Shown in pieces: positions 5,479 through 27,496 of a DNA stretch of 32,000 nt. Origin of the DNA: Flavobacteriaceae bacterium (GTDB taxonomy: Bacteria > Bacteroidota > Bacteroidia > Flavobacteriales > Flavobacteriaceae); contig OZ245049.1 of the NCBI GenBank assembly GCA_965224465.1, positions 690,001-722,000 of the forward strand, given 5' to 3'. The notes under the pieces were generated by a model that was not told where the DNA came from, ran no database searches, and saw only the letters and a list, made by a program, of their open reading frames with translations. The position numbers were made by a program, and so were the translations under genes. Within the stretch, counting starts at the first letter, position 1. Each line of letters opens with the position of its first letter.

Positions 5479-6189
5479 TTAGAAGTTTGCTAATTTTATA
5501 AAATTAATCTCTCCAGTTGTCTTATCTACTACAGCAACATATTTCTGTATTGAACCATTAGATGCTGATATAATAGCATCAGCAGTTTGTTGTTTCAAAC
5601 CTCCAAGTCCGTCTAATTTATCTGTTGCAACATAATTTATCCAGTTATCACTCATTTGAGAAGGAAGACCTGTGTTTGTATTTGGTCCACTTAAAGATGC
5701 TGAACCACTTGAAGACATTTGTTTGCTTTCAATAATAATTATCTCTGAAGGGTTATCAATTCCACCTTTATAATATATACCATCATATCCATTGACACCA
5801 TTTGCTCCATAATATTTACCATCTGCTATTTGATATCCTTGTCCAGTCATAATATCATCTACTAATCCTTCTGTCTTAGCTCCTAAATTATCTCCATTTA
5901 CAATAATATCATCAACTACATTCTTTGCAGAACTTCCATTTGTTGGTGTTATCTTATAAGCATCATTCCAAAGTGTTTTTCCAATGTTAGTCTTATTTGC
6001 TCCTCCTGGTATTTTAGCTGTAATATTCTTAAATGATGAAAGACTAAACCAGTTACTCCCTGCGTTAGCCAATTCTTCAAGCCTTTCACTACTTTTTTCA
6101 ATTGAAAAAAAAGTGTCGTTTGCACTTAAATTGAGTGTCGAAAAAACACTAAGTACAACAATTAGGAATATTTTAAATAAGCTGTTCAC
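5479..6189 (-). CDS. Secreted polymorphic toxin, body type A (possible PD-(D/E)xK-like nuclease)
   Basis: ORF track, 236 aa with a GTG start. The leader NSLFKIFLIVVLSVFSTLNLSA|NDTFFSIEKSS..EELAN is shared with the other toxins. The body contains YDGIYY...IIIIESK, read by eye as D...ExK; the nuclease call is weak. Confidence 0.65.
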   Translation of the reverse strand: MNSLFKIFLIVVLSVFSTLNLSANDTFFSIEKSSERLEELANAGSNWFSLSSFKNITAKIPGGANKTNIGKTLWNDAYKITPTNGSSAKNVVDDIIVNGDNLGAKTEGLVDDIMTGQGYQIADGKYYGANGVNGYDGIYYKGGIDNPSEIIIIESKQMSSSGSASLSGPNTNTGLPSQMSDNWINYVATDKLDGLGGLKQQTADAIISASNGSIQKYVAVVDKTTGEINFIKLANF

Positions 6190-6764
6190 GGATTACAAAG
6201 ATAGTTGATTTCTTAGTTTTTGTTTTTCTTCAATTGAAAAAAAAATAAACACAAAGTTTAAGGCTTGATTTTTTGTAATTAATGCCTTATCGAAATTTTC
6301 ATTTTTTAGAATAATGCTCTATGGCATTGATTATAAAAAATGAGCATCCAAGGGGTTTGGGGAATGGAAGATTCCCCATATAAATAAATCCTGCGTAGCA
6401 GACCTATTATTTTTTTTGTGCGGTTGGGAGCGTTGGATGTGTGGCTATTTTGCATAATACCAGTTATAACTACCTGGAGTTTTTCACGCAAGAGTATTAT
6501 AACTTGTATTATGTTACTTAGCTTGGGGTGGTTTTTATGGCGGATTTTTTGCTTTTGTGCGGTGGCACAGCTCTTTGGATTTTCTTTTTTTCAATTGAAA
6601 ATAAAAACGATAAAAAAGAAAATACAATGTGCTGTTTTTGCGGTGGGTTGCAGAAAGTGTGACATAAAAACCACAGAAGGGTTGGCGTGCGGAACAACAT
6701 AAAGCACAAAGGCTTTTTGCTTTTTCTGCAAAAGTTTGGGTTTTATGTTGTGGGGATTGGTCGG
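6065..6764 (-). repeat. Leader + junction region, allele A
   Basis: Conserved between all module boundaries. T-run-CAATTG-A-run palindromes at 6093-6112 (inside the leader CDS), 6229-6238 and 6590-6599. GGGGAAT-GGAAG-ATTCCCC hairpin at 6359-6377. (G)TGCGGT(T)GG repeats at 6418-6427, 6557-6565 and 6639-6646. Confidence 0.8.
6453..6513. repeat. 17-bp inverted repeat (CATAATACCAGTTATAA / TTATAACTTGTATTATG) with a 27-nt loop
   Basis: Arms at 6453-6469 and 6497-6513, complementary at 16 of 17 positions. The loop sequence is unrelated to the other copies and lacks the CAATTG palindrome. Confidence 0.75.
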
Positions 6765-7043
6765 TTATTTCTCTCCATAATGAGAATGTGCATTTAGTAC
6801 ATAAACTGTAACTATTTCTTCATTTATAGAATACACTAATCGGTGTTTATGGTTGATTCTTCTTGAATACAATCCTTTTAAATTATGTTTCAACATTTCG
6901 GGTTGTCCTGTTCCTGTTGTTGGGTGTTCCATTAATTCAGTTAATAATTTCTGTAACTTCTTTAAAATTGATTTATCTCCTACTTTTTTATGTTTCTCAA
7001 TATCTTCTAAAGCGGTTTTAGAAAATTCTAATTTATAACTCAT
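6765..7043 (-). CDS. yoeB: YoeB/Txe-family toxin (RelE superfamily mRNA interferase)
   Basis: ORF track, 92 aa. GQPEMLKHNLKGLYSRRINHKHRLVYSI closely resembles E. coli YoeB [28 protein letters not shown]. It overlaps the antitoxin stop by 4 nt. Confidence 0.88.
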   Translation of the reverse strand: MSYKLEFSKTALEDIEKHKKVGDKSILKKLQKLLTELMEHPTTGTGQPEMLKHNLKGLYSRRINHKHRLVYSINEEIVTVYVLNAHSHYGEK

Positions 7044-7291
7044 AAACCTAATAATTCACTTATTTCTTTAGGTGTAGAAATGGTTTTTGTTTCTCCATTT
7101 TGAACTTCTAAAACGCTTTGTTGAATACGTTCTATCATCTTTGCATTAAAGTACATATCGTTCTCACTAACAAGAGTTAATGCATACGATTTATCTTTCC
7201 CCCTTTGAACAATTATATACTCTCCTTTATCTACTCTTTCGAAGTATTCTTTTTGATTTTGTCTAAATTCTCTACTGCTTATAACTAACAT
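7040..7291 (-). CDS. Phd/YefM-family antitoxin
   Basis: ORF 7040-7354 trimmed to the internal ATG at 7291 (MLVISSREFRQNQKEYFERV...), which resembles the YefM N-terminus (ISYSEARQNL). The upstream 21 codons overlap a palindromic operator-like site and look non-coding. Confidence 0.75.
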   Translation of the reverse strand: MLVISSREFRQNQKEYFERVDKGEYIIVQRGKDKSYALTLVSENDMYFNAKMIERIQQSVLEVQNGETKTISTPKEISELLGL

Positions 7292-7306
7292 AATATCATA
7301 TTTTGT

Positions 7307-7321
7307 GTACCAATATGGTAC
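7307..7321. promoter_or_regulatory. Perfect palindrome GTACCA-ATA-TGGTAC upstream of the antitoxin gene (candidate YefM/YoeB operator)
   Basis: 6-bp arms with a 3-bp spacer, 16 nt upstream of ATG 7291. Type II TA operons are typically autoregulated at such palindromes. Confidence 0.55.
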
Positions 7322-7354
7322 AATATACAAATAAATAAGCAAAAAGTATTCCAT

Positions 7355-8296
7355 TTACCCTAAAGGATGAAACATTTCTATTTGTTTACTCAAATTCTTC
7401 ATGTCTTTATTACGGTACTTTTCTATATTTCCAACATTTTTATAACCGCTTAAATATTGGGTTTTTCTTAATCCAAATAAATCTATCCAAATGCCTATTC
7501 TTGATTGTTTGAGTTGAGTTAATCTTTTAATGTTTATTGTTGGATTCTGCTCCTTTATGGTTTTTACTAATACTTTTAATTGCTCGTGTAAGCGTTGTTC
7601 TTTGTTGCAGTTTGGATTGAACAGTTTTTCGCTTTGCTCTGTATTTGGCTTGTTGTTTCTACCTATCCCTCTAAAATCGGTAATATAATCGTGAAAAGGA
7701 ATTATCTGATTTGCTTCTAATTTTACTGTTCTGCTGTTCTTTCTTCTTACTCCTCCTGGGACTTTTATGATTCCTTTTTTTAGATCTAAATCTTCTAATT
7801 CTAAATTCATTAAATCTTGCTTGTCCAATGCTTGAAAAATCATTAACCCCAATAGTAGTTTATTGCTGTATTTAAAATATCCGTGTTTAGTTTTGTCTTG
7901 ATAATTGGTGTAGATTTCTTGTAGTTCTTCTTCTGTTAATAAAATGATTTGCTCTTGTGCTACTCCTCTTAATCTTACATTTAAAGCAATGTTTTGTATT
8001 GCTTCTGTTGAGCTATTTAAAAGACGCTGTGCGTCTAAAAAGTGGTAATAATGTTCTATTGCTCTTAAAGTTGTATTGATACTTGTTTTTGATTTCTCTT
8101 GATTTTGTAAGTGTCCTATATAGTTTAATAACTGATTGTATTTTATCGTTTTCACGGTTAGTTTATTTAGCTGTAACCAAATTGTAAAAAGTCCTATTCT
8201 CATTATAAAATCCTTGATACATTTTTCGCTATAAAACCTATCTGTTAGCCATTTATCAAAGGCGAGAGGCTCGCTACCCAATTTATTATTTTTCAT
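7355..8296 (-). CDS. Second, divergent tyrosine-recombinase-like protein (313-aa type)
   Basis: ORF track. SAM-like N-terminal region (TSINTTLRAIEHYYHFL). The C-terminal region aligns by eye to the first recombinase, but the Arg-I position reads D (QALDKQDL), GH is GY, and the terminal Tyr is kept (NIEKY). Confidence 0.8.
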   Translation of the reverse strand: MKNNKLGSEPLAFDKWLTDRFYSEKCIKDFIMRIGLFTIWLQLNKLTVKTIKYNQLLNYIGHLQNQEKSKTSINTTLRAIEHYYHFLDAQRLLNSSTEAIQNIALNVRLRGVAQEQIILLTEEELQEIYTNYQDKTKHGYFKYSNKLLLGLMIFQALDKQDLMNLELEDLDLKKGIIKVPGGVRRKNSRTVKLEANQIIPFHDYITDFRGIGRNNKPNTEQSEKLFNPNCNKEQRLHEQLKVLVKTIKEQNPTINIKRLTQLKQSRIGIWIDLFGLRKTQYLSGYKNVGNIEKYRNKDMKNLSKQIEMFHPLG

Positions 8297-9149
8297 CCTG
8301 TATTAATTGGCTGTCTGCCTCAGACTCTTCAAGTATGTGCGTATAAATCTGTGTACTATCTAACCTTTTATGTCCTAAAAAATTACCAATATATTCTAAC
8401 TCCATTCCTTGCTGTAAAAGATGTGTAGCAATGCTATGACGTAAACTGTGCAGGCTCGCCTGTTTTGTTATCTCTGATTTCTTCATCAAAACTTTTAACC
8501 TGTTGTTTAAATATTGTCCTGTTACTTGTGGTTTTGATTTTCCAACTAATAAATAGTTACTTTCTGTATTGATTATCTCCCTTGCAAACTCAACATATTC
8601 TTTTAAATCTGCTATTACTTTTTGAGACATTGGAACATATCTACTTTGATAATTCTTACTTGGTTTTACATAAATTAATCCTTTGTTAAAGTCTAATTCT
8701 TTTGGCTCTAAATTAATTCCCTCTTTACTTCTTAATCCGCAACCGTAGTAAATACTTAGTATTGCTTTATCAAAAAGCCCTAAGGGCTTATTTTCATCTA
8801 CAGCCTTGAATAAGGCTTGTATTTCTGATTGGCTAAAAATGGTTCTTTGGGTTCTGATTTCCTTTTCTACTATGATTTTACCTGTTACTAATTTTTGCTT
8901 TTTGGTGAGTTCTAAAAACTTACTGTACCTGTTTATTACATTAATATAACCTTGTATTGATTGTCTTGCTAATTTAGTTTGATGTAGGTCTTTTATGAAG
9001 TTTTCTATCTCTTGTTGATTAGGCTTTCTTTGATTTAAATACTTGAAAAAATTAGCTAATAACCTGACATATCCTTTGATGGTGCTTTCTGCATAACCCA
9101 ATCTAATTAACCACAGCTTGAAGCTGTTCAATTCATTTTCTTTCTCCAT
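8286..9149 (-). CDS. Tyrosine recombinase/integrase, module 2
   Basis: ORF track, 287 aa, with the same R...HxxR...H...Y motifs as 717-1574. Its 3' part is identical to 717-992 in the tract compared. Confidence 0.9.
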   Translation of the reverse strand: MEKENELNSFKLWLIRLGYAESTIKGYVRLLANFFKYLNQRKPNQQEIENFIKDLHQTKLARQSIQGYINVINRYSKFLELTKKQKLVTGKIIVEKEIRTQRTIFSQSEIQALFKAVDENKPLGLFDKAILSIYYGCGLRSKEGINLEPKELDFNKGLIYVKPSKNYQSRYVPMSQKVIADLKEYVEFAREIINTESNYLLVGKSKPQVTGQYLNNRLKVLMKKSEITKQASLHSLRHSIATHLLQQGMELEYIGNFLGHKRLDSTQIYTHILEESEADSQLIQDEK

Positions 9150-9246: not shown

Positions 9247-11796
9247 TTAGTTGCCCACTAACTCAACTGGGTCACTGTGGTTTACTGGTTCACTCATTAT
9301 TGCTTTTATATCTTCCAAAGCCTTATCTAATGCGGACTCTATACAGTTTTTTAAGTTTTCGTATTCTTCTGTATTCAGTAATTCATATTCGTAACCTCTT
9401 GCTTTATTACCTCCAATTACACTTAAATATCCGTATCTGTTCAAATCTGATAAATACCTATTTAATGTGGTTGGTGCAAAACGATATGCCTTTCTAATTT
9501 CTTTGCTATAAAAACTCTTTTTTTGATGTTTGGATAGATATGTTTTAAGTAACTCCAAAAAATCCCTACACGCTTTTGTTAACTCATCACTTTTCGCCAG
9601 CAGTACCGTTTTTAACAGCTTATTGGCTTGTTCTATATCTTCTAAAGTCGTTTCTATATAATAGTTTCCTTGTTCGTCTTTTTTACGTTCTCGTTGATAC
9701 TGATGGTAAAAAGTAACGGTTTCTATAAATGCCAAATAATGGGTATTTGTTCTCAAGGGTTTAAAAACTGTTTCGGGAATATTGAGCATTGTAGCATAAG
9801 GATTTACAACTTTTACTTTTTCTAATAACCATTGCACATCTTTTAAAAATTCCCTGGCGTTATTCTCTTCTTGCTTGTTAATCTTTCCTGCTGAACTATT
9901 TTGTTGATAGCTCATAATCCCTTCTTTTTGTTGTTTGCTGTTATCTAAATAAATGAGCAAACTTCTATTAGCATTATCTTCATAAATCTTTTCTTTGGTG
10001 GTTGTTCCGGCTAAACAAATTGGGCCTTCTACTGTTAAGGTGATTGTTTTTAGGTTTCCTTTAGCATCTTTTATAGGAATGGTTTTACTTATTTTTCGTT
10101 TACTCATTAATTCACGGATAGCATACAAAATCTTATCATCTTGTGCTCCGTCCAAGTCCTCAATTAGAACTAATTTATTTTTGAGTTCTGTTCTATCAAA
10201 GTAGTAAAGTGCATTTTCTGATAGTGCTGTAATTTCTAATTTATGTTCTTCTGGTATGAGGTCTGATATTTTTTCTTGTAGGTAGGTTTTCCCTGTTCCA
10301 CTTGCTCCAAGGCTTATAATGTGTAGCGGTTGTTCTCTTAATCTGCTCGTAAAAACCAAATACATTAACAAACGATTATTAACCTCTCCAACCATTCCAG
10401 TTTTACCAATTAAGTCGTTTGTGTTTTGTAGTAAATTTTCTCCTTTTAAGAATTCAATTGCTTTTTGTTTTCTTAGTTCCGTGAGTTCTCTTAATTTCTT
10501 TTTCTGTGGTTTTTGTGCATCTACTTGTCTTAATCTGTAATCTTCTAATCCGTTTATGAGTTCTGCTATTGCGTATTGTATTTCTCTTGTTCCTAATTCT
10601 AATCTTTCGGCTACTTTCCTTGTAAATTTCTCGGTTGAATCATCATTGTATAAATCTAAATTACTTTGTCTGATGTTATATATTGGACTTGGGTTATCTG
10701 TTCTTGTGATGCGTAGGGTTACTTTTAACTTGTCTAAACTGAACAAGTTTACCCCTCCTAAAACGGCTATTAAAATGTTGTTGTTTTGGTAAGTGATGTA
10801 ATCTTGGTTTTCTGTGTTCAGCTCGTTACTTACTGGTTCTGCCTGCTCTGCTACAAATTCAGTTTCCGAACCATATAAATTTACTCTTTCGCTTATTAGA
10901 TGCTCTAAAATACTTGGCTCGTGTGATTGTACCAGACTATTTATATCTTCTCCTTGCGGACAATTAATTTTACTGATGCTTAGATTGTTAAATAGTTGAT
11001 TTAATGTTTTAGAATGTTCTTGTATTGCTTTTTCTCCTGCTTCATCTCCATCAAAAAAGAGTATCACTTCTTTTAAATTCTCTATTCTTTTAAGTGCTTC
11101 TAAATGCTCATTGGTTAGCCCATTTGTTCCGTAAAGTGCAAGTGTTTCAAAGTTGGTGTATTTCTGAAGTGTAACACTATCAATTATACTTTCTGTAAGG
11201 ACTATTACTTGCGTTTCTTTGTTTGGATATTTGGGATAAAGCCCTTTTCTGTTTGCTGTATAGTAGTGCGTTCCTGTTTTTGCTATATTTCTACCGTACA
11301 GACTTACTATTTCGTTTTGCTCATTTTTTAGAGGATAGATAATACAGTTTTTTAAGTTCTTATAAATTCCTCCAGAGTTATAGCCTTGTTCTAATTTCAC
11401 ATCATAAATCCCTCTTTCTTCTAAATAGGCGATTGCTTTTTTACTTCTATGTAGGCTTTGTTTGAATTTTGGGAATAATTCGGTAAAGTTTATAGCCTCC
11501 TGTATTTCTGTTGTTGTTTTGAGTGGTTTTATTTCTGCAGTACCAATTAACTCTTTTGCCTTTTTGATTGCTTGGTGTTTTGTACAGTTCTCTATTTCTT
11601 GTATAAACTGTATTGCATCTCCTGTTTTATCACAACCAAAGCAAGTGTAGGTGTTTGTATTTGGGTAAATTCTTAAACTGGGTTTATTGTCTTTATGGAA
11701 TGGGCATTTTGCGTGGTTGTTATTATTTACGCTTATGTTGTACTCATTTAGTACTGTTTCTATGCTTAATTGCTCTTTAATTTGCTTGATTTCCAT
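9247..11796 (-). CDS. Primase-helicase-like replication protein (tail type 2)
   Basis: ORF track, 849 aa, with CHC2 finger, TOPRIM and Walker A/B as in 1651-4191. The C-terminal ~150 aa differ (..QRERKKDEQGNYYIETT..RYGYLSVIGGNKARGYEYELL..). Confidence 0.9.
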   Translation of the reverse strand: MEIKQIKEQLSIETVLNEYNISVNNNNHAKCPFHKDNKPSLRIYPNTNTYTCFGCDKTGDAIQFIQEIENCTKHQAIKKAKELIGTAEIKPLKTTTEIQEAINFTELFPKFKQSLHRSKKAIAYLEERGIYDVKLEQGYNSGGIYKNLKNCIIYPLKNEQNEIVSLYGRNIAKTGTHYYTANRKGLYPKYPNKETQVIVLTESIIDSVTLQKYTNFETLALYGTNGLTNEHLEALKRIENLKEVILFFDGDEAGEKAIQEHSKTLNQLFNNLSISKINCPQGEDINSLVQSHEPSILEHLISERVNLYGSETEFVAEQAEPVSNELNTENQDYITYQNNNILIAVLGGVNLFSLDKLKVTLRITRTDNPSPIYNIRQSNLDLYNDDSTEKFTRKVAERLELGTREIQYAIAELINGLEDYRLRQVDAQKPQKKKLRELTELRKQKAIEFLKGENLLQNTNDLIGKTGMVGEVNNRLLMYLVFTSRLREQPLHIISLGASGTGKTYLQEKISDLIPEEHKLEITALSENALYYFDRTELKNKLVLIEDLDGAQDDKILYAIRELMSKRKISKTIPIKDAKGNLKTITLTVEGPICLAGTTTKEKIYEDNANRSLLIYLDNSKQQKEGIMSYQQNSSAGKINKQEENNAREFLKDVQWLLEKVKVVNPYATMLNIPETVFKPLRTNTHYLAFIETVTFYHQYQRERKKDEQGNYYIETTLEDIEQANKLLKTVLLAKSDELTKACRDFLELLKTYLSKHQKKSFYSKEIRKAYRFAPTTLNRYLSDLNRYGYLSVIGGNKARGYEYELLNTEEYENLKNCIESALDKALEDIKAIMSEPVNHSDPVELVGN

Positions 11797-12757: not shown

Positions 12758-13563
12758 AACCCCATAAATTCAAATAAATCTTGTAACCCTTTTGAAATTA
12801 TTGATTTACCTCCTGAATGATTAAACCCTTTAGGTACACTATGTATAGATGTCTTAACAGGAAATAAAGTTCTCCCATCTTCAAAATGATGCCAAGTATA
12901 TGTCTCCCAATTACCATTCTCAAATAATTGAAATTGCTTTGACATTCCACCTGAATTGGTTTGTGCAATTCTAAAGTTCCCATTAGTCATATAGCCATTA
13001 TTCCAAGGCCAATTACCGCCTGATTTTTCAATCCCAAATTTCTTTGCTAAAGCCGTATTTGCTTGAGTAAAATCCGTTCCTGCACCTGTTAGATTTGGTG
13101 ATTCAAATTTAAACTTGCTTGCAGTTGTTCCATCAGTAAAATTGAGAATGGGTGAATTAGAACGTAAATCCGGCATTCCTTTTTTATAGGTTACAGAAAC
13201 ACTTTGCCCATCAATAACTTTTGTAACAGTATAATCCATCTGACCACCATAACCTTGTGGATGTTTGAGTGTTTTATAGTGATTATCTAATTGTTGAAGT
13301 TTTACGTCAGTAAGATTATCTAATTTAGCCAAGAAAGAAGCATCAGCAACATCATCTAAGCTGTTCACAAAGTTTTTAGCAAAACTTAAATCCCCTAAAG
13401 CATCAAGTTTTGTAATAATTTTAGATTTCCCCACCGTATTAGCCAATTCTTCAACACTATTACTACTTTTTTCAGTTGAAAAAAAAGTATCGTTTGCACT
13501 TAAATTTAGTGTCGAAAAAACACTAAGTACAACTAATAGGAATATTTTAAATTGATTACTCAC
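12754..13563 (-). CDS. Secreted polymorphic toxin, body type B (WHH-type HNH/EndoVII-fold nuclease)
   Basis: The ORF track gives 12754-13572 with a TTG start. I prefer GTG at 13563, which aligns with the GTG start of 5479-6189. Shared leader. The C-terminus TYTWHHFEDGRTLFPVKTSIHSVPKGFNHSGG fits the WHH clade of HNH/EndoVII toxins, which commonly pair with SUKH immunity proteins. Confidence 0.75.
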   Translation of the reverse strand: MSNQFKIFLLVVLSVFSTLNLSANDTFFSTEKSSNSVEELANTVGKSKIITKLDALGDLSFAKNFVNSLDDVADASFLAKLDNLTDVKLQQLDNHYKTLKHPQGYGGQMDYTVTKVIDGQSVSVTYKKGMPDLRSNSPILNFTDGTTASKFKFESPNLTGAGTDFTQANTALAKKFGIEKSGGNWPWNNGYMTNGNFRIAQTNSGGMSKQFQLFENGNWETYTWHHFEDGRTLFPVKTSIHSVPKGFNHSGGKSIISKGLQDLFEFMGF

Positions 13564-14153
13564 AGATGACAAAGGTAACAGTTTTCTTAGTTTTTCTTTT
13601 TCTTCAATTGAAAAAAAAACTAAGGCTTGATTTTTTTATAATTATTGCCTTGTCGAAATGTTGATTTTAAAACTAATGTTCTTGGCAATGATTATGAAAA
13701 AATGAGCATCCAAAGGGGTTTGGGGAATGGAAGATTCCCCATATAAATAAATCCTGCGTAGCAGACCTATTTTTTTAGTGTGTCGGCAAGTGTGGTGGAT
13801 GTGTGGCTATTTTGCATAATACCAGTTATAATGACATTTTTTTCAATTGAAAAGAAAATAATCAACTCGAAAAATGTGCGAAGCGAACTTATAACTTGTA
13901 TTATGTAACTTAGCTTGGGGTTTAATTTTTTGGCATTGCTTTTTGTTCTGTGCGGTGGGGTAGCTGTTTGGTGTTGGCTTTTTTTATTTTCAAAAAAAAC
14001 AATAACAAAGTGCTACTTGTGGAATGGCTTACAAAAACTATGACAAAAAATTAAACAGAAGGGATGGCGAGCGGAACAAAAGGAAACACAAAGGCTTTTT
14101 GCTTTTTCTGCAAAAATTTGGGTTTACTTTTGTGGGGATTTGTGCGGTGGATT
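13439..14153 (-). repeat. Leader + junction region, allele B
   Basis: Palindromes at 13467-13486 (CAGTTG variant, inside the CDS), 13603-13612 and 13842-13851. A degenerate T-run/A-run relic lies at about 13979-13999. Hairpin at 13722-13740. GTGCGGTGG at 13950-13958 and 14142-14150. Confidence 0.8.
13815..13905. repeat. Same 17-bp inverted repeat with a 57-nt loop containing a CAATTG palindrome
   Basis: Arms at 13815-13831 and 13889-13905. Confidence 0.75.
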
Positions 14154-15035
14154 TTATCCCAATGGATGAAACATTTCTATCTGTTTACTAAGGTTTTTCA
14201 TATCCTTATTTCGGTACTTTTCTATATTCCCAACATTTTTATAGCCACTTAAATATTGTGTTTTTCTTAATCCATATAAATCTATCCAAATACCTATTCT
14301 TGATTGTTTGAGCTGGGTTAGTCTTTTGATATTTAGTGCTGGATTTTGTTCTCTAATTGTTTTTACTAATGCTTTTAATTGTTCGTGCACCCTCTGTTCT
14401 TTATTGACATTTGGATGAAATAGTTTTTCGCTTTCTTCTAAACTTACTTTTCCATTTCTTCCTATTCCTCTAAAGTTGGTTATGTAATCGTGTAATGGTA
14501 TTATCTGATTGGCTTCTAATTTTACTACTCTACTATTTTTTCTTCTGATTCCTCCAGGTACTTTTATAATTCCTTTTTCTAAATCTAAATCGTCTAATTC
14601 TAAATTCATTAAATCTTGCTTGTCTAATGCTTGAAAAAGCATTAATCCTAATAGTAATTTATTGCTGTATTTAAAATAACCGTGTTTGGTCTTATCTTGA
14701 TAATTGGTATAGATTTCTTGTAGTTCCTTTTCTGTTAATAGTATGATTTGTTCTTGTGCTACTCCTCTTAATCTTACATTTAAAGCAATATTATCTATCC
14801 TTAAAAAATGGTAATAATGTTCTATTGCTCTAAGGGTTGTATTGATACTTGTTTTTGATTTCTCTTGATTCTGTAAATGTCCTATGTAGTTTAATAGTTG
14901 ATTGTATTTTATGGTTTTTAGGGTTAGTTTATTAAGTTTTAACCAAATTGTAAAAAGTCCTATTCGCATTATAAAACCTTTGATACATTTCTCACTGTAA
15001 TATCTATCAATTAACCATTTTCTGTATTCTTCCAT
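14154..15035 (-). CDS. Second, divergent tyrosine-recombinase-like protein (293-aa type)
   Basis: ORF track. Paralogue of 7355-8296 that lacks the N-terminal extension and the DAQRLLNSSTEAIQN insert. It overlaps the upstream recombinase gene by 25 nt. Confidence 0.8.
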   Translation of the reverse strand: MEEYRKWLIDRYYSEKCIKGFIMRIGLFTIWLKLNKLTLKTIKYNQLLNYIGHLQNQEKSKTSINTTLRAIEHYYHFLRIDNIALNVRLRGVAQEQIILLTEKELQEIYTNYQDKTKHGYFKYSNKLLLGLMLFQALDKQDLMNLELDDLDLEKGIIKVPGGIRRKNSRVVKLEANQIIPLHDYITNFRGIGRNGKVSLEESEKLFHPNVNKEQRVHEQLKALVKTIREQNPALNIKRLTQLKQSRIGIWIDLYGLRKTQYLSGYKNVGNIEKYRNKDMKNLSKQIEMFHPLG

Positions 15036-15862
15036 TCCTCCAATATGTGCGTGTAAATCTGTGTACTATCCAACCTTTTATGACCTAAAAAATTACCGAT
15101 ATATTCTAACTCCATTCCTTGCTGTAAAAGATGTGTTGCAATGCTATGTCTTAAACTGTGTAGACTTGCTTTTTTAGTAATATTGGCTTTATTCATTAAC
15201 TTCTTTAATCTGCTGTTTAAATATTGTCCTGTTACTTGTGGTTTTGTTTTTCCAACTAATAAATAGTTACTTTCTGTATTGATTATCTCCCTTGCAAACT
15301 CAACATATTCTTTTAAATCTGCTATTACTTTTTGAGACATTGGAACATATCTACTTTGATAATTCTTACTTGGTTTTATGTACAATAATCCTTTGTTATA
15401 GTCTATTTCTTTAGGTTCTAAATTAATGCCTTCTTTACTTCTTAATCCACAACCATAGTAGATACTTAGCATTGCTTTATCAAATAAACCACTCGGACTG
15501 TGCCCATCAATTGAAGAAAAAAGTTGTTGTATTTCTAATTGATTAAAGATTACTTTTTCTGTTTTTATTTCTCTTTCTACTATAATTTTATTGACTGCTA
15601 ATTTCTGTTTTTTGGTCTTTTCTAAAAAGGCACTGTATCTATTTATTACGTTAATATGACCTTGTATATATTGTCTACTGGCTTTAGTTTGATGTAGGTC
15701 TTTTATGAAGTTTTCTATCTCTTTTTGATTAGGCTTTCTTTGGTTTAAATACTTGAAAAAATTAGCTAATAATCTTACATATCCTTTGATGGTGCTTTCT
15801 GCATAACCCAATCTTATCAACCAATTCTCAAAGTTTTCTAATTCTTCTTTTAAGTTTATCAT
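15011..15862 (-). CDS. Tyrosine recombinase/integrase, module 3
   Basis: ORF track, 283 aa, with GCGLRSKEG, HSLRHSIATHLL and LGHKRLDSTQIYTHI. The C-terminal tail (EEWKNTENG) differs from modules 1, 2 and 5. Confidence 0.9.
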   Translation of the reverse strand: MINLKEELENFENWLIRLGYAESTIKGYVRLLANFFKYLNQRKPNQKEIENFIKDLHQTKASRQYIQGHINVINRYSAFLEKTKKQKLAVNKIIVEREIKTEKVIFNQLEIQQLFSSIDGHSPSGLFDKAMLSIYYGCGLRSKEGINLEPKEIDYNKGLLYIKPSKNYQSRYVPMSQKVIADLKEYVEFAREIINTESNYLLVGKTKPQVTGQYLNSRLKKLMNKANITKKASLHSLRHSIATHLLQQGMELEYIGNFLGHKRLDSTQIYTHILEEWKNTENG

Positions 15863-15880
15863 CTTGTTTTGTAATTGGGT

Positions 15881-15895
15881 GTCGAACCTTTCGAC
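15881..15895 (-). other. Hairpin GTCGAA-CCT-TTCGAC (compensatory variant of 9166-9180)
   Basis: G to A in the left arm is matched by C to T in the right arm relative to module 2, so pairing is preserved. Confidence 0.5.
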
Positions 15896-15960
15896 AGGGG
15901 GTGCTGTGCATTTTGAGATTTTACTGGGCTACCTTTCTAATTCATTGATATACTTAACTT

Positions 15961-18540
15961 TTAGTTGCCCACTAACAGGGCTGGGCTACTGTGGTTTACT
16001 GGTTCACTGCGGAGAGCCTCCGCTGGCGTATTTTCTTTTCTTATATCTTCCAAAGCCTTATCTAATGCTGTTTCTATACTGTTTTTTAAGTTTTCGTATT
16101 CTTCTGTATTCAATAACTCATACTCGTAACCTCTTGCTCTGTTACCTCCAATTACACTTAAATATCCATATCTGTTTAAGTCTGATAAATGCCTGTTTAA
16201 TGTGGTTGGTGCAAAACGATATGCCTTTCTAATTTCTTTACTGTAAAAACTCTTTTTTTGATATTTAGATAAATACCCTTTAAGTAATTCCAAAAAATCT
16301 CGACACGCTTTTGTTAGTTCATCACTTTTAGCTAATAGTACCGTTTTTAATAGCTTATTGGCTTGTTCTATATCTTCTAAAGTCGTTTCGATATAATAGT
16401 TTCCTTGTTCGTCTTTTTTACGCTCTCGCTGGTATTGATGATAAAATGTTACCGTTTCTATAAAGCTTAAATAATGGGTGTTGGTTCTTAATGGTTTAAA
16501 AACTGTTTCGGGAATATTTAATAGTGTAGCGTAGGGATTTACAACTTTTACTTTCTCTAACAACCATTGTACATCTTTCAAAAATTCCCTGGCGTTATTC
16601 TCTTCTTGCTTGTTGATTTTTCCTGCTGAACTATTTTGTTGATAGCTCATAATTCCCTCTTTTTGTTCTTTTGAATTGTCTAAATAAATGAGTAAACTTC
16701 TGTTGGCATTATCTTCATAAATCTTTTCTTTGGTGGTTGTTCCTGCTAAACAAATTGGTCCTTCTACGGTTAGGGTCACGGTTTTTAGGTTTCCTTTGGC
16801 ATCTTTTATAGGAATAGTTTTACTTATTTTTCGTTTACTCATTAGCTCTCTTATAGCATACAGAATTTTATCATCTTGTGCTCCGTCCAGATCCTCAATT
16901 AGAACTAATTTATTTTTCAGTTCTGTTCTATCAAAATAGTATAAAGCATTTTCGGATAATGCTGTAATTTCTAATTTATGTTCTTCTGGTATCAGGTCTG
17001 ATATTTTTTCTTGTAGGTAGGTTTTCCCTGTTCCACTTGCTCCAAGACTTATAATGTGTAGCGGTTGTTCTCTTAATCTGCTCGTAAAAACCAAATACAT
17101 TAACAAACGATTATCAAACTCTCCAACCATTCCCGTTTTCCCGATTAAATCATTTGTGTTTTGTAGTAAATTCTCTCCTTTTAAGAACTCAATTGCCTTT
17201 TGTTTTCTTAGCTCTGTTAGTTCCCTTAATTTCTTCTTTTGTGGCTTCTGTGAATCAACTTGTCTTAACCTGTAATCTTCTAATAAATTAATCAACTCAA
17301 AAAGGGTGCTTTGTATTTCTCGTGTTCCTAACTCTAACCTTTCGGCTACTTTTCTTATAAATTTCTCCGTTGCATCATCATTGTATAAATCTAAATTACT
17401 TTGTCTAATGTTGTAGATTGGACTTGGATTATCTGTTCTTGTTATTCGTAAGGTTACTTTTAGCTTATCTAAACTGAATAGGTTTATTCCACCTAAAACG
17501 GCTACTAAAATATTGTTGTTTTGATATGTTATGTATTCTGAATTTGTAACATCTAAATTATTGCCTGCAGGTGCTACCTGCTCTGTTATAAATTCAGTTT
17601 CTGAACCAAATAAATTTATTCTTTCATTTATTAAATGCTCTAATATTTCGGAACTATGACTAATTACCAAACTATTTATATCTTCTCCTTGCGGACAATT
17701 AATTTTACTTATTGATAAATTATTGAGTAGTTGGTTTAGTGTTTTAGAATGTTCTTGTATTGCTTTTTCACCTGCTTCATCTCCATCAAAGAAAAATATC
17801 ACTTCTTGTAAATTCTCTATTCTTTTAATCGCCTCCAAGTGCAACTTGGTAAATCCATTTGTTCCATATAAAGCAAGTGTTTCATAGTTGGTATATTTCT
17901 GAAGTGTAGCACTATCAATTATACTTTCTGTAAGGATTATTACTTGTGTTTCTGCAGGTGGATATTTCGGATACAATCCTTTTCTGTTAGCTGTATAATA
18001 ATGCGTTCCTGTTTTGGCTATATTTCTGCCGTAGAGACTTACTATCTCGTTTTGCTCATTTTTGAGTGGGTAAACAATACAGTTTTTGAGTTGTTTAAAT
18101 TGAGTACCATTATTATACCCTTGCTCTAACTTTACATCATAGATTCCTCTTTCTTCTAAATAGGCAATTGCTTTTTTACTTCTGTGTAGGCTTTGTTTGA
18201 ATTTTGGAAATAGCTCTTCAAAATTTACATTCTCTATCTTTTCAAGTTTAGAAGTGCTCGTAATTTTTAATTCATCATTCGTAATTGACAAAAGGCTTTT
18301 CGCCTTTTGTATTGCTTTGTGTTTTGTACATTTCTCAAAATCTTGAATAAACTGTATTACATCTCCTGTTTTATCACAACCAAAACAAGTGTAAGTATTC
18401 GTTTCTGGGTAAATTCTTAAACTTGGTTTATCGTCTTTATGGAAAGGACACAAACAATGCTTGTTTTTATTCATTACAACACTGTACTCGTTTAGTACTG
18501 TAACTATGCTTAATTGCTCTTTAATTTGCTTGATTTCCAT
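15961..18540 (-). CDS. Primase-helicase-like replication protein (tail type 2)
   Basis: ORF track, 859 aa, same domain motifs. Variable linker after the Zn finger. Extra C-terminal residues encoded by a GCGGAG-AGC-CTCCGC hairpin-forming insert. Confidence 0.9.
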   Translation of the reverse strand: MEIKQIKEQLSIVTVLNEYSVVMNKNKHCLCPFHKDDKPSLRIYPETNTYTCFGCDKTGDVIQFIQDFEKCTKHKAIQKAKSLLSITNDELKITSTSKLEKIENVNFEELFPKFKQSLHRSKKAIAYLEERGIYDVKLEQGYNNGTQFKQLKNCIVYPLKNEQNEIVSLYGRNIAKTGTHYYTANRKGLYPKYPPAETQVIILTESIIDSATLQKYTNYETLALYGTNGFTKLHLEAIKRIENLQEVIFFFDGDEAGEKAIQEHSKTLNQLLNNLSISKINCPQGEDINSLVISHSSEILEHLINERINLFGSETEFITEQVAPAGNNLDVTNSEYITYQNNNILVAVLGGINLFSLDKLKVTLRITRTDNPSPIYNIRQSNLDLYNDDATEKFIRKVAERLELGTREIQSTLFELINLLEDYRLRQVDSQKPQKKKLRELTELRKQKAIEFLKGENLLQNTNDLIGKTGMVGEFDNRLLMYLVFTSRLREQPLHIISLGASGTGKTYLQEKISDLIPEEHKLEITALSENALYYFDRTELKNKLVLIEDLDGAQDDKILYAIRELMSKRKISKTIPIKDAKGNLKTVTLTVEGPICLAGTTTKEKIYEDNANRSLLIYLDNSKEQKEGIMSYQQNSSAGKINKQEENNAREFLKDVQWLLEKVKVVNPYATLLNIPETVFKPLRTNTHYLSFIETVTFYHQYQRERKKDEQGNYYIETTLEDIEQANKLLKTVLLAKSDELTKACRDFLELLKGYLSKYQKKSFYSKEIRKAYRFAPTTLNRHLSDLNRYGYLSVIGGNRARGYEYELLNTEEYENLKNSIETALDKALEDIRKENTPAEALRSEPVNHSSPALLVGN

Positions 18541-18574
18541 ACTCTAAAATATTTGGTTGTTAATTTCAACACCA

Positions 18575-18582
18575 CAAATATA
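18575..18582 (-). promoter_or_regulatory. Candidate -7 box (TATATTTG on the minus strand) for the primase operon
   Basis: Matches TAnnTTTG, about 34 nt upstream of the primase ATG (18540). Confidence 0.4.
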
Positions 18583-18655
18583 AAATATAGTTTCGATAAT
18601 AAAAACATAAATGTTTTTTAAATCAATACATTTTTGATAATATTTCTATTTAAGC

Positions 18656-18663
18656 TACTTTTG
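18656..18663 (+). promoter_or_regulatory. Candidate -7 box (TACTTTTG) for the XRE gene
   Basis: Matches TAnnTTTG only 4 nt before ATG 18668, which would imply a leaderless or near-leaderless mRNA. Confidence 0.4.
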
Positions 18664-18667
18664 TGTT

Positions 18668-19033
18668 ATGGATTTAGCAGAAAACATTAAAGCAATTAGA
18701 GAAGAAAAGGGTTTAAAACAGATTGAAGTAGCTGATTATATTGGTGTTGATAAATCCGCTTATAGTAAAATTGAAAAAGGTTCTCGTTCTTTGGCTATTG
18801 AGGAACTTCAAAAAATGGCACAGCTCTTTAATCTGACTACTGACCAAATTCTTAACTATGATGGTAACATACCTAAAGAGGTAACCATTGAAGATAAAAC
18901 CGCAGTAGAGCAAATGAGGTTGATACAAGAATTAGATGAAGAGGATAAACAAACTGTCTTTAAAATAATTGATAAGATGCTTACTACTAAGAAATTTAAA
19001 GACTTCTTTAATAAAAATGTAGCTACGCTTTGA
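18668..19033 (+). CDS. XRE/Cro-C1-type HTH regulator
   Basis: ORF track, 121 aa (IREEKGLKQIEVADYIGVDKSAYSKIEKGSR). Divergent from the primase gene. Confidence 0.85.
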   Translation: MDLAENIKAIREEKGLKQIEVADYIGVDKSAYSKIEKGSRSLAIEELQKMAQLFNLTTDQILNYDGNIPKEVTIEDKTAVEQMRLIQELDEEDKQTVFKIIDKMLTTKKFKDFFNKNVATL

Positions 19034-19129
19034 TTTTTATTTAGAATAAATATAAATTAAGTGTTTCTTACGATACAGTAAATATGCCTTATAGGTAGCA
19101 AATGTGCTATATAGGTGTCAAAGTTATTT

Positions 19130-20226: not shown

Positions 20227-20816
20227 AGATGACAAAGGTAACAGTTTTCTTAGTTTTTCTTTTTCTTCAATTGAAAAAAAAACTAAGGCTTGATTTTTTT
20301 ATAATTATTGCCTTGTCGAAATGTTGATTTTAAAACTAATGTTCTTGGCAATGATTATGAAAAAATGAGCATCCAAAGGGGTTTGGGGAATGGAAGATTC
20401 CCCATATAAATAAATCCTGCGTAGCAGACCTATTTTTTTAGTGTGTCGGCAAGTGTGGTGGATGTGTGGCTATTTTGCATAATACCAGTTATAATGACAT
20501 TTTTTTCAATTGAAAAGAAAATAATCAACTCGAAAAATGTGCGAAGCGAACTTATAACTTGTATTATGTAACTTAGCTTGGGGTTTAATTTTTTGGCATT
20601 GCTTTTTGTTCTGTGCGGTGGGGTAGCTGTTTGGTGTTGGCTTTTTTTATTTTCAAAAAAAACAATAACAAAGTGCTACTTGTGGAATGGCTTACAAAAA
20701 CTATGACAAAAAATTAAACAGAAGGGATGGCGAGCGGAACAAAAGGAAACACAAAGGCTTTTTGCTTTTTCTGCAAAAATTTGGGTTTACTTTTGTGGGG
20801 ATTTGTGCGGTGGATT
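20102..20816 (-). repeat. Leader + junction region, allele B (duplicate)
   Basis: Same as 13439-14153 at +6663. Palindromes at 20130-20149, 20266-20275 and 20505-20514. Hairpin at 20385-20403. Confidence 0.8.
20478..20568. repeat. Same 17-bp inverted repeat (duplicate of 13815-13905)
   Basis: Offset 6663. Confidence 0.75.
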
Positions 20817-22525: not shown

Positions 22526-22543
22526 CTTGTTTTGTAATTGGGT

Positions 22544-22558
22544 GTCGAACCTTTCGAC
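22544..22558 (-). other. Hairpin (duplicate of 15881-15895)
   Basis: Offset 6663. Confidence 0.5.
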
Positions 22559-22623
22559 AGGGGGTGCTGTGCATTTTGAGATTTTACTGGGCTACCTTTC
22601 TAATTCATTGATATACTTAACTT

Positions 22624-25203: not shown

Positions 25204-25237
25204 ACTCTAAAATATTTGGTTGTTAATTTCAACACCA

Positions 25238-25245
25238 CAAATATA
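25238..25245 (-). promoter_or_regulatory. Candidate -7 box (duplicate of 18575-18582)
   Basis: Offset 6663. Confidence 0.4.
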
Positions 25246-25326: not shown

Positions 25327-25330
25327 TGTT

Positions 25331-26233: not shown

Positions 26234-26889
26234 TAGTTTATAAAATCTTCAAGTGCTTTAATTTCAAAAGTTATATCAGGATCAACTGTATTAAGTTTAT
26301 TCATCCATTCCGTTTTCAATGTTGGCGTTATACTGGCTTTAGGCATATAGACATCAATTTTAGCATTTGTAATAAACATTGTTTTCCCATTGCTCACGAG
26401 ACCTGTTGAAGGGTCTAGACCTTCTTTTAGAAATTTAATATTTTTCTGCATTGGTGCTGACGCTAACCAAGTATCAACATTTGTTGAAATAGTCGTTTTC
26501 ATAGAAACAGCTGTATTTGCAAAAATTTGATTTGCTGTTTCTGTCCCTTTGTAAAAATCGATTCCTTTAAAGTTAAATGATATATCTCCTGTATGAAGCC
26601 ACCCAGATGATTTAGTGTAACGATATTGTCCCATTACATCTTCAAAGAAACTTCTACCACCTAACATATCAGGTATAGGATATTTCGTTTTCCAAATATC
26701 GTCTATGTGTTTAAGCTTATCAGATAAGGACTTGCTAATGAAGCCAGCCAAATCATCCACCGTATTAGCCAATTCGTCAACACTATCACTACTTTTTTCA
26801 ATTGAAAAAAAAGTGTCGTTTGCACTCAAATTTAGTGTCGAAAAAACACTAAGTACAACTAATAGAAATATTTTAAATTGATTACTCAC
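26233..26889 (-). CDS. Secreted polymorphic toxin, body type C behind a different leader allele
   Basis: The body is identical to 19570-20226 up to ..VDDLAGF. The leader differs (FFSIEKSSDSVDELANT vs FFSTEKSSNSVEELANS). ORF-track entry 26233-27027 is trimmed to the conserved GTG at 26889. Confidence 0.65.
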   Translation of the reverse strand: MSNQFKIFLLVVLSVFSTLNLSANDTFFSIEKSSDSVDELANTVDDLAGFISKSLSDKLKHIDDIWKTKYPIPDMLGGRSFFEDVMGQYRYTKSSGWLHTGDISFNFKGIDFYKGTETANQIFANTAVSMKTTISTNVDTWLASAPMQKNIKFLKEGLDPSTGLVSNGKTMFITNAKIDVYMPKASITPTLKTEWMNKLNTVDPDITFEIKALEDFIN

Positions 26890-27496
26890 AGATGACAAAG
26901 GTAACAGTTTTCTTAGTTTTTCTTTTTCTTCAATTGAAAAAAAATAAACGCAAGATTTTAAGGCTTGATTTTTTGTAATTAATGCCTTGTCGAATTTTTT
27001 GTTTTTTAGAAGAATGCTTCTTGGCATTGATTACAAAAAATGAGCATCCAAAGGGGTTTGGGGAATGGAAGATTCCCCATATAAATCAATCCTGCGTAGC
27101 AGACTTATTATTTTTTTGTGCGGTGGGGAATGGTGGAAGTGTGGCTATTTTGCATAATACCAGTTATAACGACCTTTTTTTTCAATTGAAAATCAATTAA
27201 TAAAGTCAAAAAAATGTGCGTAGCGAACTTATAACTTGTATTATGTTACTTAGCTTGGGGTGGTTTTTATGGCGGATTTTTTGCTTTTGTGCGGTGGCAC
27301 AGCTCTTTGGATTTTCTTTTTTTCAATTGAAAATAAAAACGATAAAAAAGAAAATACAATGTGCTGTTTTTGCGGTGGGTTGCAGAAAGTGTGACATAAA
27401 AACCACAGAAGGGTTGGCGTGCGGAACAACATAAAGCACAAAGGCTTTTTGCTTTTTCTGCAAAAGTTTGGGTTTTATGTTGTGGGGATTGGTCGG
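26765..27496 (-). repeat. Leader + junction region, allele D (chimeric; right part identical to allele A)
   Basis: Palindromes at 26793-26812 (inside the CDS), 26929-26938, 27181-27190 and 27322-27331. Hairpin at 27060-27078. GTGCGGTGG at 27118-27126 and 27289-27297, and TGCGGTGG at 27371-27378. Confidence 0.8.
27153..27245. repeat. Same 17-bp inverted repeat with a 59-nt loop (third loop allele, contains CAATTG)
   Basis: Arms at 27153-27169 and 27229-27245. Confidence 0.75.

Follow-up and report, generated by a model that had tools for sequence, protein, structure and literature searches.

A conserved DNA palindrome at the junctions of tandem toxin modules in Bacteroidota and its possible role as a cassette operator

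The window examined here, a 32,000-nt stretch of flavobacterial DNA, contains more than four modules of ~7 kb arranged in tandem, each comprising an XRE repressor, a primase-helicase, two Xer-type recombinases, a junction and a toxin-immunity cassette. A palindrome consisting of a T-run, CAATTG and an A-run (hereafter the PAL box) recurs at the junctions, raising the question of what it is for. The original prediction proposed three roles: (a) a core site for the recombinase pair, (b) an operator for a dimeric regulator such as the XRE protein, and (c) an architectural or DNA-bending site.

A palindrome confined to the module junctions

Re-inspection of the window confirmed the palindrome at the coordinates and with the sequences first reported. 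The exact 10-mer TTCAATTGAA was found 11 times against 0.14 expected, a count reached in 0 of 100 shuffles, and all 11 copies lie within the four junctions (A to D), in agreement with the earlier claims that it is non-random and, within the window, junction-specific. A search for the 14-mer allowing up to two mismatches returned 13 copies against 2.05 expected, every one in the junctions. Because the four junctions are paralogous copies and junction C repeats junction B within a perfect 6,663-bp duplication, the window provides 3–4 independent sites rather than 11–15.

As predicted, each junction carries one copy inside the toxin coding sequence, TTTTTTCAATTGAAAAAAAA in A and D and a CAGTTG variant in B and C. 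On the minus strand this leader copy is translated as DTFFSIEK or DTFFSTEK, a stretch that begins directly behind the signal peptide, which reads (V/M)xxxFKIFLxVVLSVFSTLNLSA across the four junctions. The upstream copies at 6229, 13603, 20266 and 26929 were also present, but their distance from the leader copy is 132 bp, not the ~120 bp first given. The copies in the loop of the inverted repeat (13842, 20505 and 27181, with none in junction A) and those further upstream (6590 and 27322, with relics at 13978 and 20641) were likewise recovered. The PAL boxes, to which no strand is assigned, and the neighbouring direct repeats are as follows:

6093..6112: leader copy, junction A, T6-CAATTG-A8, encoding FFSIEK on the minus strand; centre at about +90 from the inferred toxin transcription start
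6223..6245: promoter-proximal copy, junction A; centre 42.5 nt ahead of the inferred start of transcription at 6191; counterpart of the copy retained by most PAL-bearing relatives
6585..6607: copy flanked by two iteron-like repeats, junction A
13467..13486: leader copy, junction B, centre mutated to CAGTTG (FFSTEK)
13597..13619: promoter-proximal copy, junction B
13837..13858: copy in the loop separating two dif-like sites, junction B
13978..13999: decayed relic, junction B, CTTTTTTTATTTTCAAAAAAAA
20130..20149: leader copy, junction C, CAGTTG variant, within the 6,663-bp duplicate of B
20260..20282: promoter-proximal copy, junction C
20500..20521: loop copy, junction C
20641..20662: decayed relic, junction C
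26793..26812: leader copy, junction D, perfect
26923..26944: promoter-proximal copy, junction D
27175..27192: loop copy, junction D
27317..27339: copy flanked by iteron-like repeats, junction D
6553..6565, plus strand: iteron-like direct repeat TTTTGTGCGGTGG; further repeats have their ends at 6426, 6646, 13958, 14150, 20621, 20813, 27126, 27297 and 27378

Folded as single-stranded DNA, the window copies reach only -2 to -4 kcal/mol, within the range of shuffled sequences. The junctions also contain dif-like 11-6-11 sites of the form ATAA-N6-TTATG, of which the window holds eight against 0.36 expected. They form one inverted pair per junction, and the pair is kept even in relatives that lack the palindrome:

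6447..6473, minus strand: left dif-like site, GTAGTTATAA-CTGGTA-TTATGCAAAAT; copies at 13809-13835, 20472-20498 and 27147-27173
6492..6519, plus strand: right dif-like site, GAGTATTATAA-CTTGTA-TTATGTTACTT; copies at 13884-13911, 20547-20574 and 27224-27251

The box in Bacteroidota relatives

Relatives comprised 69 loci from GTDB species genomes (821 kb) and more than 526 metagenomic relatives, and the element family is hosted by Flavobacteriaceae, Chitinophagaceae, Cytophagales and related groups. The 69 loci contain 71 PAL copies against 3.5 expected, all of them inside modules; none occurs in the host flanks of these loci, which argues against a genome-wide dispersed repeat of the REP or MITE type. 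When the junctions of 41 loci were compared, no 11-mer was shared more widely than the box, and it is retained in hosts of 30–49% GC and in elements with primases only 38–64% identical to that of the window. In relatives it is often a 26–30-bp dyad, and these long forms fold at -6 to -10 kcal/mol. Where TTCAATTGAA lies inside the primase-helicase linker, it encodes FSIE in most loci and FQLK in both modules of L031; the same DNA is thus read in two frames, and it must therefore be the DNA itself that is under selection, as the earlier suggestion of a function at the DNA level held. We take it as shown that the PAL box is symmetric, occurs only in the elements and is under selection as DNA.

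Variation among relatives separates the box into halves. In seven loci (L130, L131, L152, L137, L140, L099 and L147), TTCAA and TTGAAAAGAAAAAA are kept 14–40 nt apart or are accompanied by an extra direct half-site, and one clade retains the cassette-side half-site only. The logo and these split, tandem and half-only variants reveal a dyad with separable half-sites, as expected of an operator; split and half-only forms behave as protein-binding units would, unlike a hairpin or a crossover core. Upstream and leader copies are separated by 132 bp in the window and L069, by 133 bp in L001 and L091, and by 121 bp in L044 and L169. Modules B and C carry a mutated leader copy, and L003 has lost it; this copy may be dispensable, or partly maintained by the peptide.

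Among 2.9 million viral contigs, the exact 18-mer matched 20 times, always in DNA unrelated to the family, and the long form matched nowhere, so the box is not a phage feature. A search of a plasmid collection with one whole module gave no match. No tRNA gene was found as an integration target in the window and 14 loci, and the XRE-side end of the element, searched for conserved motifs, showed only terminator hairpins.

The cargo consists of signal-peptide toxins in the window and orphan Rhs tips in relatives, and in L013 the element and an orphan tip come after a full-length Rhs-like gene of 1,918 aa. Tandem cassettes are also known from orphan Rhs and other polymorphic-toxin arrays and from the recombinase-associated immunity islands (rAID) of Bacteroidales. 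The present elements resemble them in stacking toxin-tip and immunity cassettes behind a conserved 5' region, but differ in that every cassette comes with a complete backbone of XRE protein, primase-helicase, two recombinases and PAL box. Our literature search for this architecture found no paper describing it. The box is the signature of a widespread, tandemly arrayed and apparently undescribed family of toxin-carrying mobile elements in Bacteroidota. Concatemers of marine phage satellites (PMC9618062) are a different case, as the window modules are not identical copies.

A possible operator at the cassette promoter

We favor, at a probability of about 0.4, the reading that the PAL box is a duplex protein-binding operator at the promoter of the toxin-immunity cassette. 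This proposal is based on the split and half-site variants, the weak hairpin energy and an apparently fixed spacing to a -7-type promoter box:

6196..6203, minus strand: -7-type promoter box TATCTTTG with the consensus TAnnTTTG, followed after 6 nt by the GTG start (6189-6187)
13570-13577, 20233-20240 and 26896-26903: equivalent -7-type boxes TACCTTTG

In the window, this conserved TA(T/C)CTTTG box follows the PAL box by 27 nt and precedes the GTG start by 6 nt; the flavobacterial -7 box spans -12 to -5 (PMC9723704). On the minus strand, transcription is predicted to start at about 6191, 13565, 20228 and 26891. Of 71 unique non-primase boxes, 17 have a TAnnTT[TG]N box 12–18 nt past CAATTG towards the cassette, compared with 2 of 71 on the mirror side. 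None of the 34 primase-internal copies is followed by a promoter box, nor is the copy between primase and recA in L015 or those after recB in L017, L024 and L027. The copy on the cassette side appears to be linked to a -7-type box, which many copies lack.

The canonical spacing to a -7 box is ~19–20 nt. From the TTG of the PAL box it amounts to 13–16 nt in relatives and 27 nt in the window, so a promoter reading is not clean, and we rejected the box as a -33 element on this ground. Two divergent promoters were rejected as well, a mirror-side -7 box being present in just 2 of 71 cases. A scan for sigma-70 promoters and terminators found no enrichment, using models ill-suited to Bacteroidota promoters.

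The proposed operator would offer two inverted half-sites, roughly TTGAAAAGAAAAAA, to a sequence-specific protein. Its constant copy, kept in most PAL-bearing elements, directly precedes the -33 region of the cassette promoter-like box or overlaps it; relative to the inferred start, its centre falls at about -42.5 in the window and, in Chitinophagaceae relatives, at about -29 to -32. A protein occupying this copy would be expected to gate expression of the toxin-immunity cassette at the level of transcription. The additional copies, 132 bp downstream in the signal-peptide coding sequence and 250–360 bp upstream, could act as auxiliary operators allowing cooperative binding or looping around the promoter; those upstream are located in or beside the dif-like hairpin and between iteron-like repeats. 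We infer protein binding to the box, the transcription start, repression or activation, and looping. The binder may be a host factor or a conserved backbone protein, with the winged-helix tail of the primase-helicase and the catalytically degenerate recombinase paralogue as candidates. No regulator covarying with the box was found, and an RHH-like ORF of L013, considered as a PAL-adjacent DNA-binding gene, proved private to that locus.

In the gal (OE/OI) and deo systems, a dyad operator upstream of the promoter is looped together with a second one in the first coding region. The window likewise has identical short dyads, one ahead of the promoter and one some 90 nt inside the coding sequence, where the copy is tolerated in frame, with more copies hundreds of bp away. 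Unlike the gal and deo operators, the PAL box is much more AT-rich and longer (20–30 bp), also occurs inside a replication gene, and shows spacings of 121 and 132 bp that correspond to half-integral helical turns.

Alternative candidate roles: origin, bend, repressor site and crossover

One finding stands against a pure cassette operator, which does not predict that the box is confined to modules with a primase-fused helicase. This finding favors a second, more tentative possibility, namely that the box is an origin or priming signal of the element replicon, recognised or melted by the P4-alpha-like primase-helicase, with a symmetry that would present an identical template on either strand and so permit bidirectional initiation. 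Exact boxes were present in 32 of 54 modules with a fusion of helicase and DnaG-type primase domain and in 0 of 18 helicase-only modules, kinship being ignored; the counts are 22 of 28 versus 0 of 14 in genomes and 10 of 26 versus 0 of 4 in metagenomes. The association holds within mixed arrays of a single host (L027, L029 and L033), and in L029 both module types share the upstream junction and the same Rhs-tip cargo type. It is nevertheless phylogenetically non-independent, and 22 of the 54 primase-fused modules lack the exact box. As many as 29 of the 71 copies are located in the primase-helicase linker, exactly where helicase-only proteins start, and the protein itself comprises a zinc ribbon, a Toprim domain, a P-loop and a C-terminal winged-helix-like tail, but alignment of the tail shows no split by box status. 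An extremely AT-rich sequence, placed in the window between iteron-like repeats, would suit an origin; the poor hairpins of the window copies are unlike G4-type priming signals, and neither a fixed promoter-box spacing nor 3–4 copies over 500 bp would be expected of one. In addition, DnaG-type primases normally read trinucleotides in single-stranded DNA.

Origins inside initiator genes are known from lambda (ori in O) and SPP1 (oriR in gene 38), and the alpha primase-helicase of P4 binds two sites, ori and crr. The PAL copies inside the replication gene would parallel these cases: relatives have one copy in the interdomain linker and a second ~4.8 kb away, and the element protein shares the three-part architecture of P4 alpha. 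The parallel is limited in that the gene-internal copy is absent from this window and that the iterons of P4 lack palindromic symmetry. In iteron replicons (RepE of F; RepA of pPS10 and pSC101), inverted-repeat operators share their half-site with the iterons. The PAL half-site is likewise found inverted in pairs and, in some relatives, directly repeated, the element replication protein has a winged-helix-like tail, and the box overlaps a putative promoter; unlike in those replicons, control would be exerted on the promoter of the toxin cassette rather than of the replication gene, and the separate iteron-like repeats of the element (TGCGGTGG) differ from the PAL box in sequence.

A more specific form of the origin proposal, which we regard as unlikely, makes the box a dedicated initiation signal for the fusion of DnaG-type primase and SF3-like helicase, coupling toxin-cassette exchange, replication and cassette transcription. 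The dif-like pair would fold into a hairpin like that of CTX phage or attC and undergo single-strand exchange by one active and one dead Xer paralogue, and replication begun at the PAL box would resolve the exchange. As single-stranded DNA, the dif-like pair folds at -11 to -15 kcal/mol with a central mismatch. One recombinase of the window is catalytically complete and the other lacks R, R and H, a combination that fits single-strand exchange.

Somewhat less probable still is role (c), in which the box is a bending site, either bound by a host nucleoid protein or intrinsically kinkable, that would aid assembly of a recombination or replication complex at the dif-like hairpin. Phased T and A tracts around two CA/TG steps are consistent with such a site, as are its flexible position and its location in the dif-like loop or ~70–90 nt away in the subfamily of the window (window, L001, L044, L169 and L098). 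The Chitinophagaceae-type junction box, however, is separated from the dif-like pair by 400–900 nt, no box lies near the pair in L069 or L091, the strict conservation of the 10-bp core exceeds what bending sites usually need, and the box is specific to the element lineage within a single host.

Role (b) fared unevenly: the operator class it belongs to is the best supported, but the XRE protein is an improbable binder. Every module encodes an XRE helix-turn-helix protein, RstR-like in type, and a dyad would suit a dimer of it. Three XRE types that are mutually 36% identical nevertheless accompany identical boxes, and the XRE of a box-free helicase-only module (L033) is 45% identical to window type A, closer than window type C. 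The XRE-primase intergenic regions, where an autoregulatory site would be expected, vary with XRE type and contain neither box nor half-site; neither covariation nor autoregulatory placement was thus observed.

Role (a) was not supported, and a crossover core whose symmetric spacer permits inversion and deletion is very unlikely. In its long form, TTTTTTTCTTT-CAATTG-AAAGAAAAAAA, the box has the 11-6-11 layout of a tyrosine-recombinase core, with arm interruptions often one position off, and it lies at module seams (primase/helicase, backbone/cargo and after recB). Better cores exist, however, in the inverted dif-like pair of every junction, which matches the ATAA-N6-TTATGTAA of E. coli and B. 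subtilis dif, a signature that the PAL box lacks; the dif-like sites are likely the true recombinase core. Breakpoints also fall outside the box. Modules A and D are 100% identical over 1,866 bp from the inner arm of the right dif-like site, with the switch at 6498 inside that site, and the crossover of the 6,663-bp duplication is 17–30 nt outside the leader box. Similarity between modules extends 35–230 nt beyond the box (window, L062 and L035), helicase-only modules have both recombinases and no box, and single-copy elements have a box at one junction and none at the other end. We conclude that the PAL box is probably not a recombinase cut site and is separate from the recombination breakpoints. 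In a comparison with dif, the forked attP(+) hairpin of CTX phage and integron attC, the two inverted simple sites per junction resemble these, as the RstR-like repressor resembles that of CTX phage, whereas the PAL box is neither a carrier of ATAA-N6-TTAT nor a breakpoint. The element differs from these systems in supplying its own recombinases and in keeping the dif-like pair intact in integrated single copies.

Finally, a functionless by-product of AT-rich composition, F-S-I-E-K-type peptides and terminator T-runs is highly improbable: the linker peptide FxFSxE(K/N) does persist in primases without the exact core, and the T-run of some boxes follows a GC hairpin like a terminator tail (L015, L016, L030 and L061), but copies are enriched 20- to 80-fold and mostly non-coding, hosts of 45–49% GC have conserved the box, and the same DNA is read in two frames. 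An intrinsic terminator was rejected, the box having no GC stem of its own and occurring inside open reading frames. Rfam gave no match at gathering score, only chance microRNA-like hairpins (E >= 0.01), and a covarying RNA stem noticed by eye downstream of the Chitinophagaceae box was dismissed when RNAalifold returned no consensus pairs.

The PAL box provides a simple, searchable hallmark of a large family of Bacteroidota elements that pile up toxin-immunity cassettes in tandem. The natural first guess is corrected in that the recombination site is probably the less conspicuous inverted dif-like pair and not the conspicuous palindrome. Separating an operator or origin from the crossover site makes the acquisition of toxin tips, their silencing or expression, and their amplification directly testable; should replication from the PAL box indeed resolve cassette exchange, these elements would represent a new type of replicative toxin-swapping element in Bacteroidota.

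Module architecture and cargo

The window (32 kb, GC about 31%) contains more than four tandem modules of 6.7–7.6 kb each, and modules B and C form a perfect 6,663-bp tandem duplication (about 13446–20109 and 20109–26772). In its three-part organisation, the primase-helicase of each module matches P4 alpha.

Components of the modules (genes on the minus strand unless noted)
Primase-helicase: 846–859 aa; DnaG-type zinc ribbon and Toprim, then P-loop NTPase and winged-helix-like tail
First recombinase, Xer-type tyrosine recombinase: 283–287 aa; catalytic residues complete
Second recombinase, its paralogue: 293–313 aa; copies at 7355–8296, 14154–15035, 20817–21698 and 28087–29028
YefM/YoeB toxin-antitoxin pair: in some modules only; 6765–7354 and 27497–28086
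Junction: non-coding, about 580 bp
Toxin gene: begins with a conserved signal peptide; WHH nuclease domain in one toxin
Immunity gene: SUKH or Imm49
RstR-like XRE repressor: opposite strand, divergent from the next primase gene

The YefM/YoeB pair occurs only in the modules preceding junctions A and D and is absent from those preceding junctions B and C.

Primase-helicase relatives were found at 69 loci in GTDB species genomes (related Bacteroidota loci, from genomes or metagenomes, carry L numbers below), with hosts including Flavobacteriaceae, Chitinophagaceae and Cytophagales. Frequently arrayed in tandem or located on 7–8-kb contigs, they share the backbone order XRE, primase-helicase, first recombinase, second recombinase, junction, cargo. 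Chitinophagaceae-type relatives carry as cargo an orphan Rhs/YD C-terminal tip together with an immunity gene (L013 3373–9129 and 15732–17487; L035 7776–9439; L029 7509–8863; L064 15823–18459). A full-length 1,918-aa Rhs-like gene and its immunity gene lie immediately upstream of the L013 element, an arrangement that looks as if an older tip had been displaced by the element. Among viral contigs we found no relatives, and the 18-mer palindrome turned up there just 20 times, by chance; no description of the element family or the palindrome was found in the searchable literature.

Conservation of the palindrome

Every copy of the T-run–CAATTG–A-run palindrome (PAL box) claimed in the original prediction was found in place, although the promoter-proximal upstream copy, said to lie about 120 bp away, is 132 bp from the leader copy within the toxin signal-peptide coding region. 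We counted 11 exact TTCAATTGAA cores in the window versus 0.14 expected, and 13 matches to the 14-mer at up to two mismatches versus 2.05 expected, with all matches confined to junctions, as had been proposed. The window alone provides only three to four independent sites, because its junctions are paralogues. The leader copy is indeed coding, and specifies DTFFS(I/T)EK immediately after the predicted signal-peptide cleavage site.

Across the 69 loci (821 kb), we observed 71 copies of the 10-mer versus 3.5 expected: 41 in a junction or cassette 5′ end, 29 within the primase-helicase gene, one between the primase and first recombinase genes, and none in the host flanks. No junction 11-mer is shared more widely than the box. 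It extends to a longer form, typically aTTTTTTTCTTTCAATTGAAAAGAAAAAAt, in relatives of up to 49% GC, and its logo comprises an invariant core with a T-run on one side and an A-run on the other, each interrupted once at positions ±7–9, mostly by C opposite G or A opposite T.

The copies within the primase-helicase gene occupy the linker that joins Toprim to helicase, where most loci translate them as F-S-I-E. In both L031 modules, identical box DNA is read F-Q-L-K with homologous protein on both sides; conservation therefore acts on the nucleotides rather than on the peptide. Evidence for DNA-level selection is weaker for the toxin-leader copy: adjacent codons are conserved to an equal degree, modules B and C carry CAGTTG, and in L003 the core is lost while the peptide is still similar. 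We conclude that this palindrome is a genuine cis-element and that its conservation is deep.

Judged from sequence alone, a −1 shift on the box T-run (6093–6112, and primase-internal boxes of relatives) would read TTC AAT TGA, an immediate stop; at the primase-internal box, the product would be primase-only. In addition, a GC-rich hairpin (tccggg...cccgga) abuts the T-run in L015 (about 10520–10560), L016 (about 7680–7715), L030 and L061, so that the left arm of the box doubles as the terminator-like U-tract of an upstream small ORF.

Candidate roles of the palindrome

The reading we rank first, at a probability of roughly 0.4, is an operator-type box, putatively bound by a protein, at the promoter of the toxin-immunity cassette, with further copies in auxiliary roles. 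Several features favour such an operator, recognised as duplex DNA. Window copies form weak hairpins (−2 to −4 kcal/mol), similar to shuffles. The dyad is split by 14–40 nt or accompanied by an added direct half-site in L131, L140, L099 (5041–5098, two full cores 38 nt apart), L147 (3966, two adjoining dyads), and L130 (7663), L152 (5225) and L137 (4920), the last three with the extra half-site 14–17 nt off. One clade retains the cassette-side half only, TTCAATTAAAAGAAAAAAG, at an unchanged distance from the downstream box.

A −7-type box, TAnnTT[TG]N, follows CAATTG by 12–18 nt on the cassette side in 17 of 71 unique non-primase boxes, versus 2 of 71 on the mirror side and 0 of 34 primase-internal copies. 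In the window family, a conserved TA(T/C)CTTTG follows the box at a distance of 27 nt, or 18 nt in L044, and precedes the GTG start by 6 nt (6187–6203 and equivalents). Because the flavobacterial −7 box spans −12 to −5 (PMC9723704), we place the transcription start at about 6191, with the upstream box centred at about −42.5 and the leader box at about +90; in Chitinophagaceae-type elements the box centre falls about −29 to −32 from the predicted start. The boxes flanking this start keep a conserved spacing of 132–133 or 121 bp and would resemble auxiliary operators. With the −7-type box so close to the GTG, the toxin mRNA would be nearly leaderless, and the predicted 2-nt leader with a GUG start is unusual; leaderless mRNAs make up about 5% in flavobacteria (PMC9723704).

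Second in our ranking, and unlikely, is an origin or priming signal of a primase-bearing replicon. Among modules from genomes, 22 of 28 primase-fused ones carry the box versus 0 of 14 helicase-only ones; at metagenomic loci picked by helicase motif, independently of the box, the counts are 10 of 26 versus 0 of 4 (all raw counts that ignore kinship). L027, L029 and L033 combine both module types within one array, and in L029 these have a common upstream junction and the same Rhs-tip cargo type. Two of the three iteron-like TTTTGTGCGGTGG repeats of a window junction flank a box. However, the box is missing from many primase-fused modules, and its presence or absence is not mirrored in the winged-helix tail.

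The TTTTGTGCGGTGG direct repeats (10 observed versus 0.37 expected in the window) all lie in junctions, two or three per junction in a single orientation, and may be bound by the winged-helix tail of the primase-helicase.

Repeats in junction A (equivalents in junctions B–D)
6410–6426: TTTTGTGCGGTGG repeat
6553–6565: TTTTGTGCGGTGG repeat
6635–6646: TTTTGTGCGGTGG repeat

The helicase-only backbone variant (L029 2986–4560, L033 1644–3188, L040, L047, L050–L053) has no zinc-ribbon or Toprim domains; its protein begins some 25 residues ahead of the first helicase motif, exactly at the position of the PAL box in primase-fused genes.

An architectural site is improbable and comes third. Below it stands the proposal that the box is the operator of the XRE protein, which we doubt strongly: identical boxes are paired with three XRE types, mutually 36% identical; the type A XRE is nearer to that of a box-free module than to the window's own type C; and the XRE–primase intergenic regions vary with XRE type and contain no boxes. 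The proposed crossover core for the recombinase pair fares worse still and is very improbable, as the 6,663-bp duplication crossover maps to the conserved leader (alignment columns 73–86), 17–30 nt outside the leader box, module similarity continues 35–230 nt beyond the box (window, L062, L035), and helicase-only modules lack the box despite encoding both recombinases. That the box is a mere by-product is the least credible reading of all.

The dif-like pair and recombination

Dif-like sites fit the role of crossover core better. What had been described as a 17-bp inverted repeat is present, but consists of two dif-like 11-6-11 sites in inverted orientation, each of 28 bp, xxxxxTTATAA-CT(T/G)GTA-TTATGT(T/A)ACTT and TTATGCAAAAT, in every junction.

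Dif-like pairs
6447–6519: junction A
13809–13911: junction B
20472–20574: junction C
27147–27251: junction D

These sites match the dif core of E. coli and B. subtilis, ATAA-N6-TTATGTxAA (PMC3025954), and TATAA-N6-TTATG occurs in the window exclusively at them (8 observed versus 0.36 expected). The pair is kept family-wide, including in box-free relatives such as L040, L052 and L033. Folded as single-stranded DNA, it forms a hairpin of −11 to −15 kcal/mol (z about −3.3) whose spacer contains a mismatch; this fold recalls CTX-phage attP(+) and integron attC. Modules A and D share 1,866 bp at 100% identity (6498–8363 versus 27230–29095), whereas to the left of 6498/27230 they differ by 5–40%; the point where identity sets in coincides exactly with the right dif-like site's inner arm. 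This switch looks like the signature expected of a site-specific crossover, and these features point to the dif-like sites as putative recombinase cores.

In the second recombinase of the window, D replaces Arg-I, K Arg-II and Y the histidine; among relatives, L029 retains some catalytic residues, and L013 and L035 have N at Arg-I. Judged by these residues, the second recombinase may be an inactive partner, suggesting that exchange in these elements would be single-stranded.
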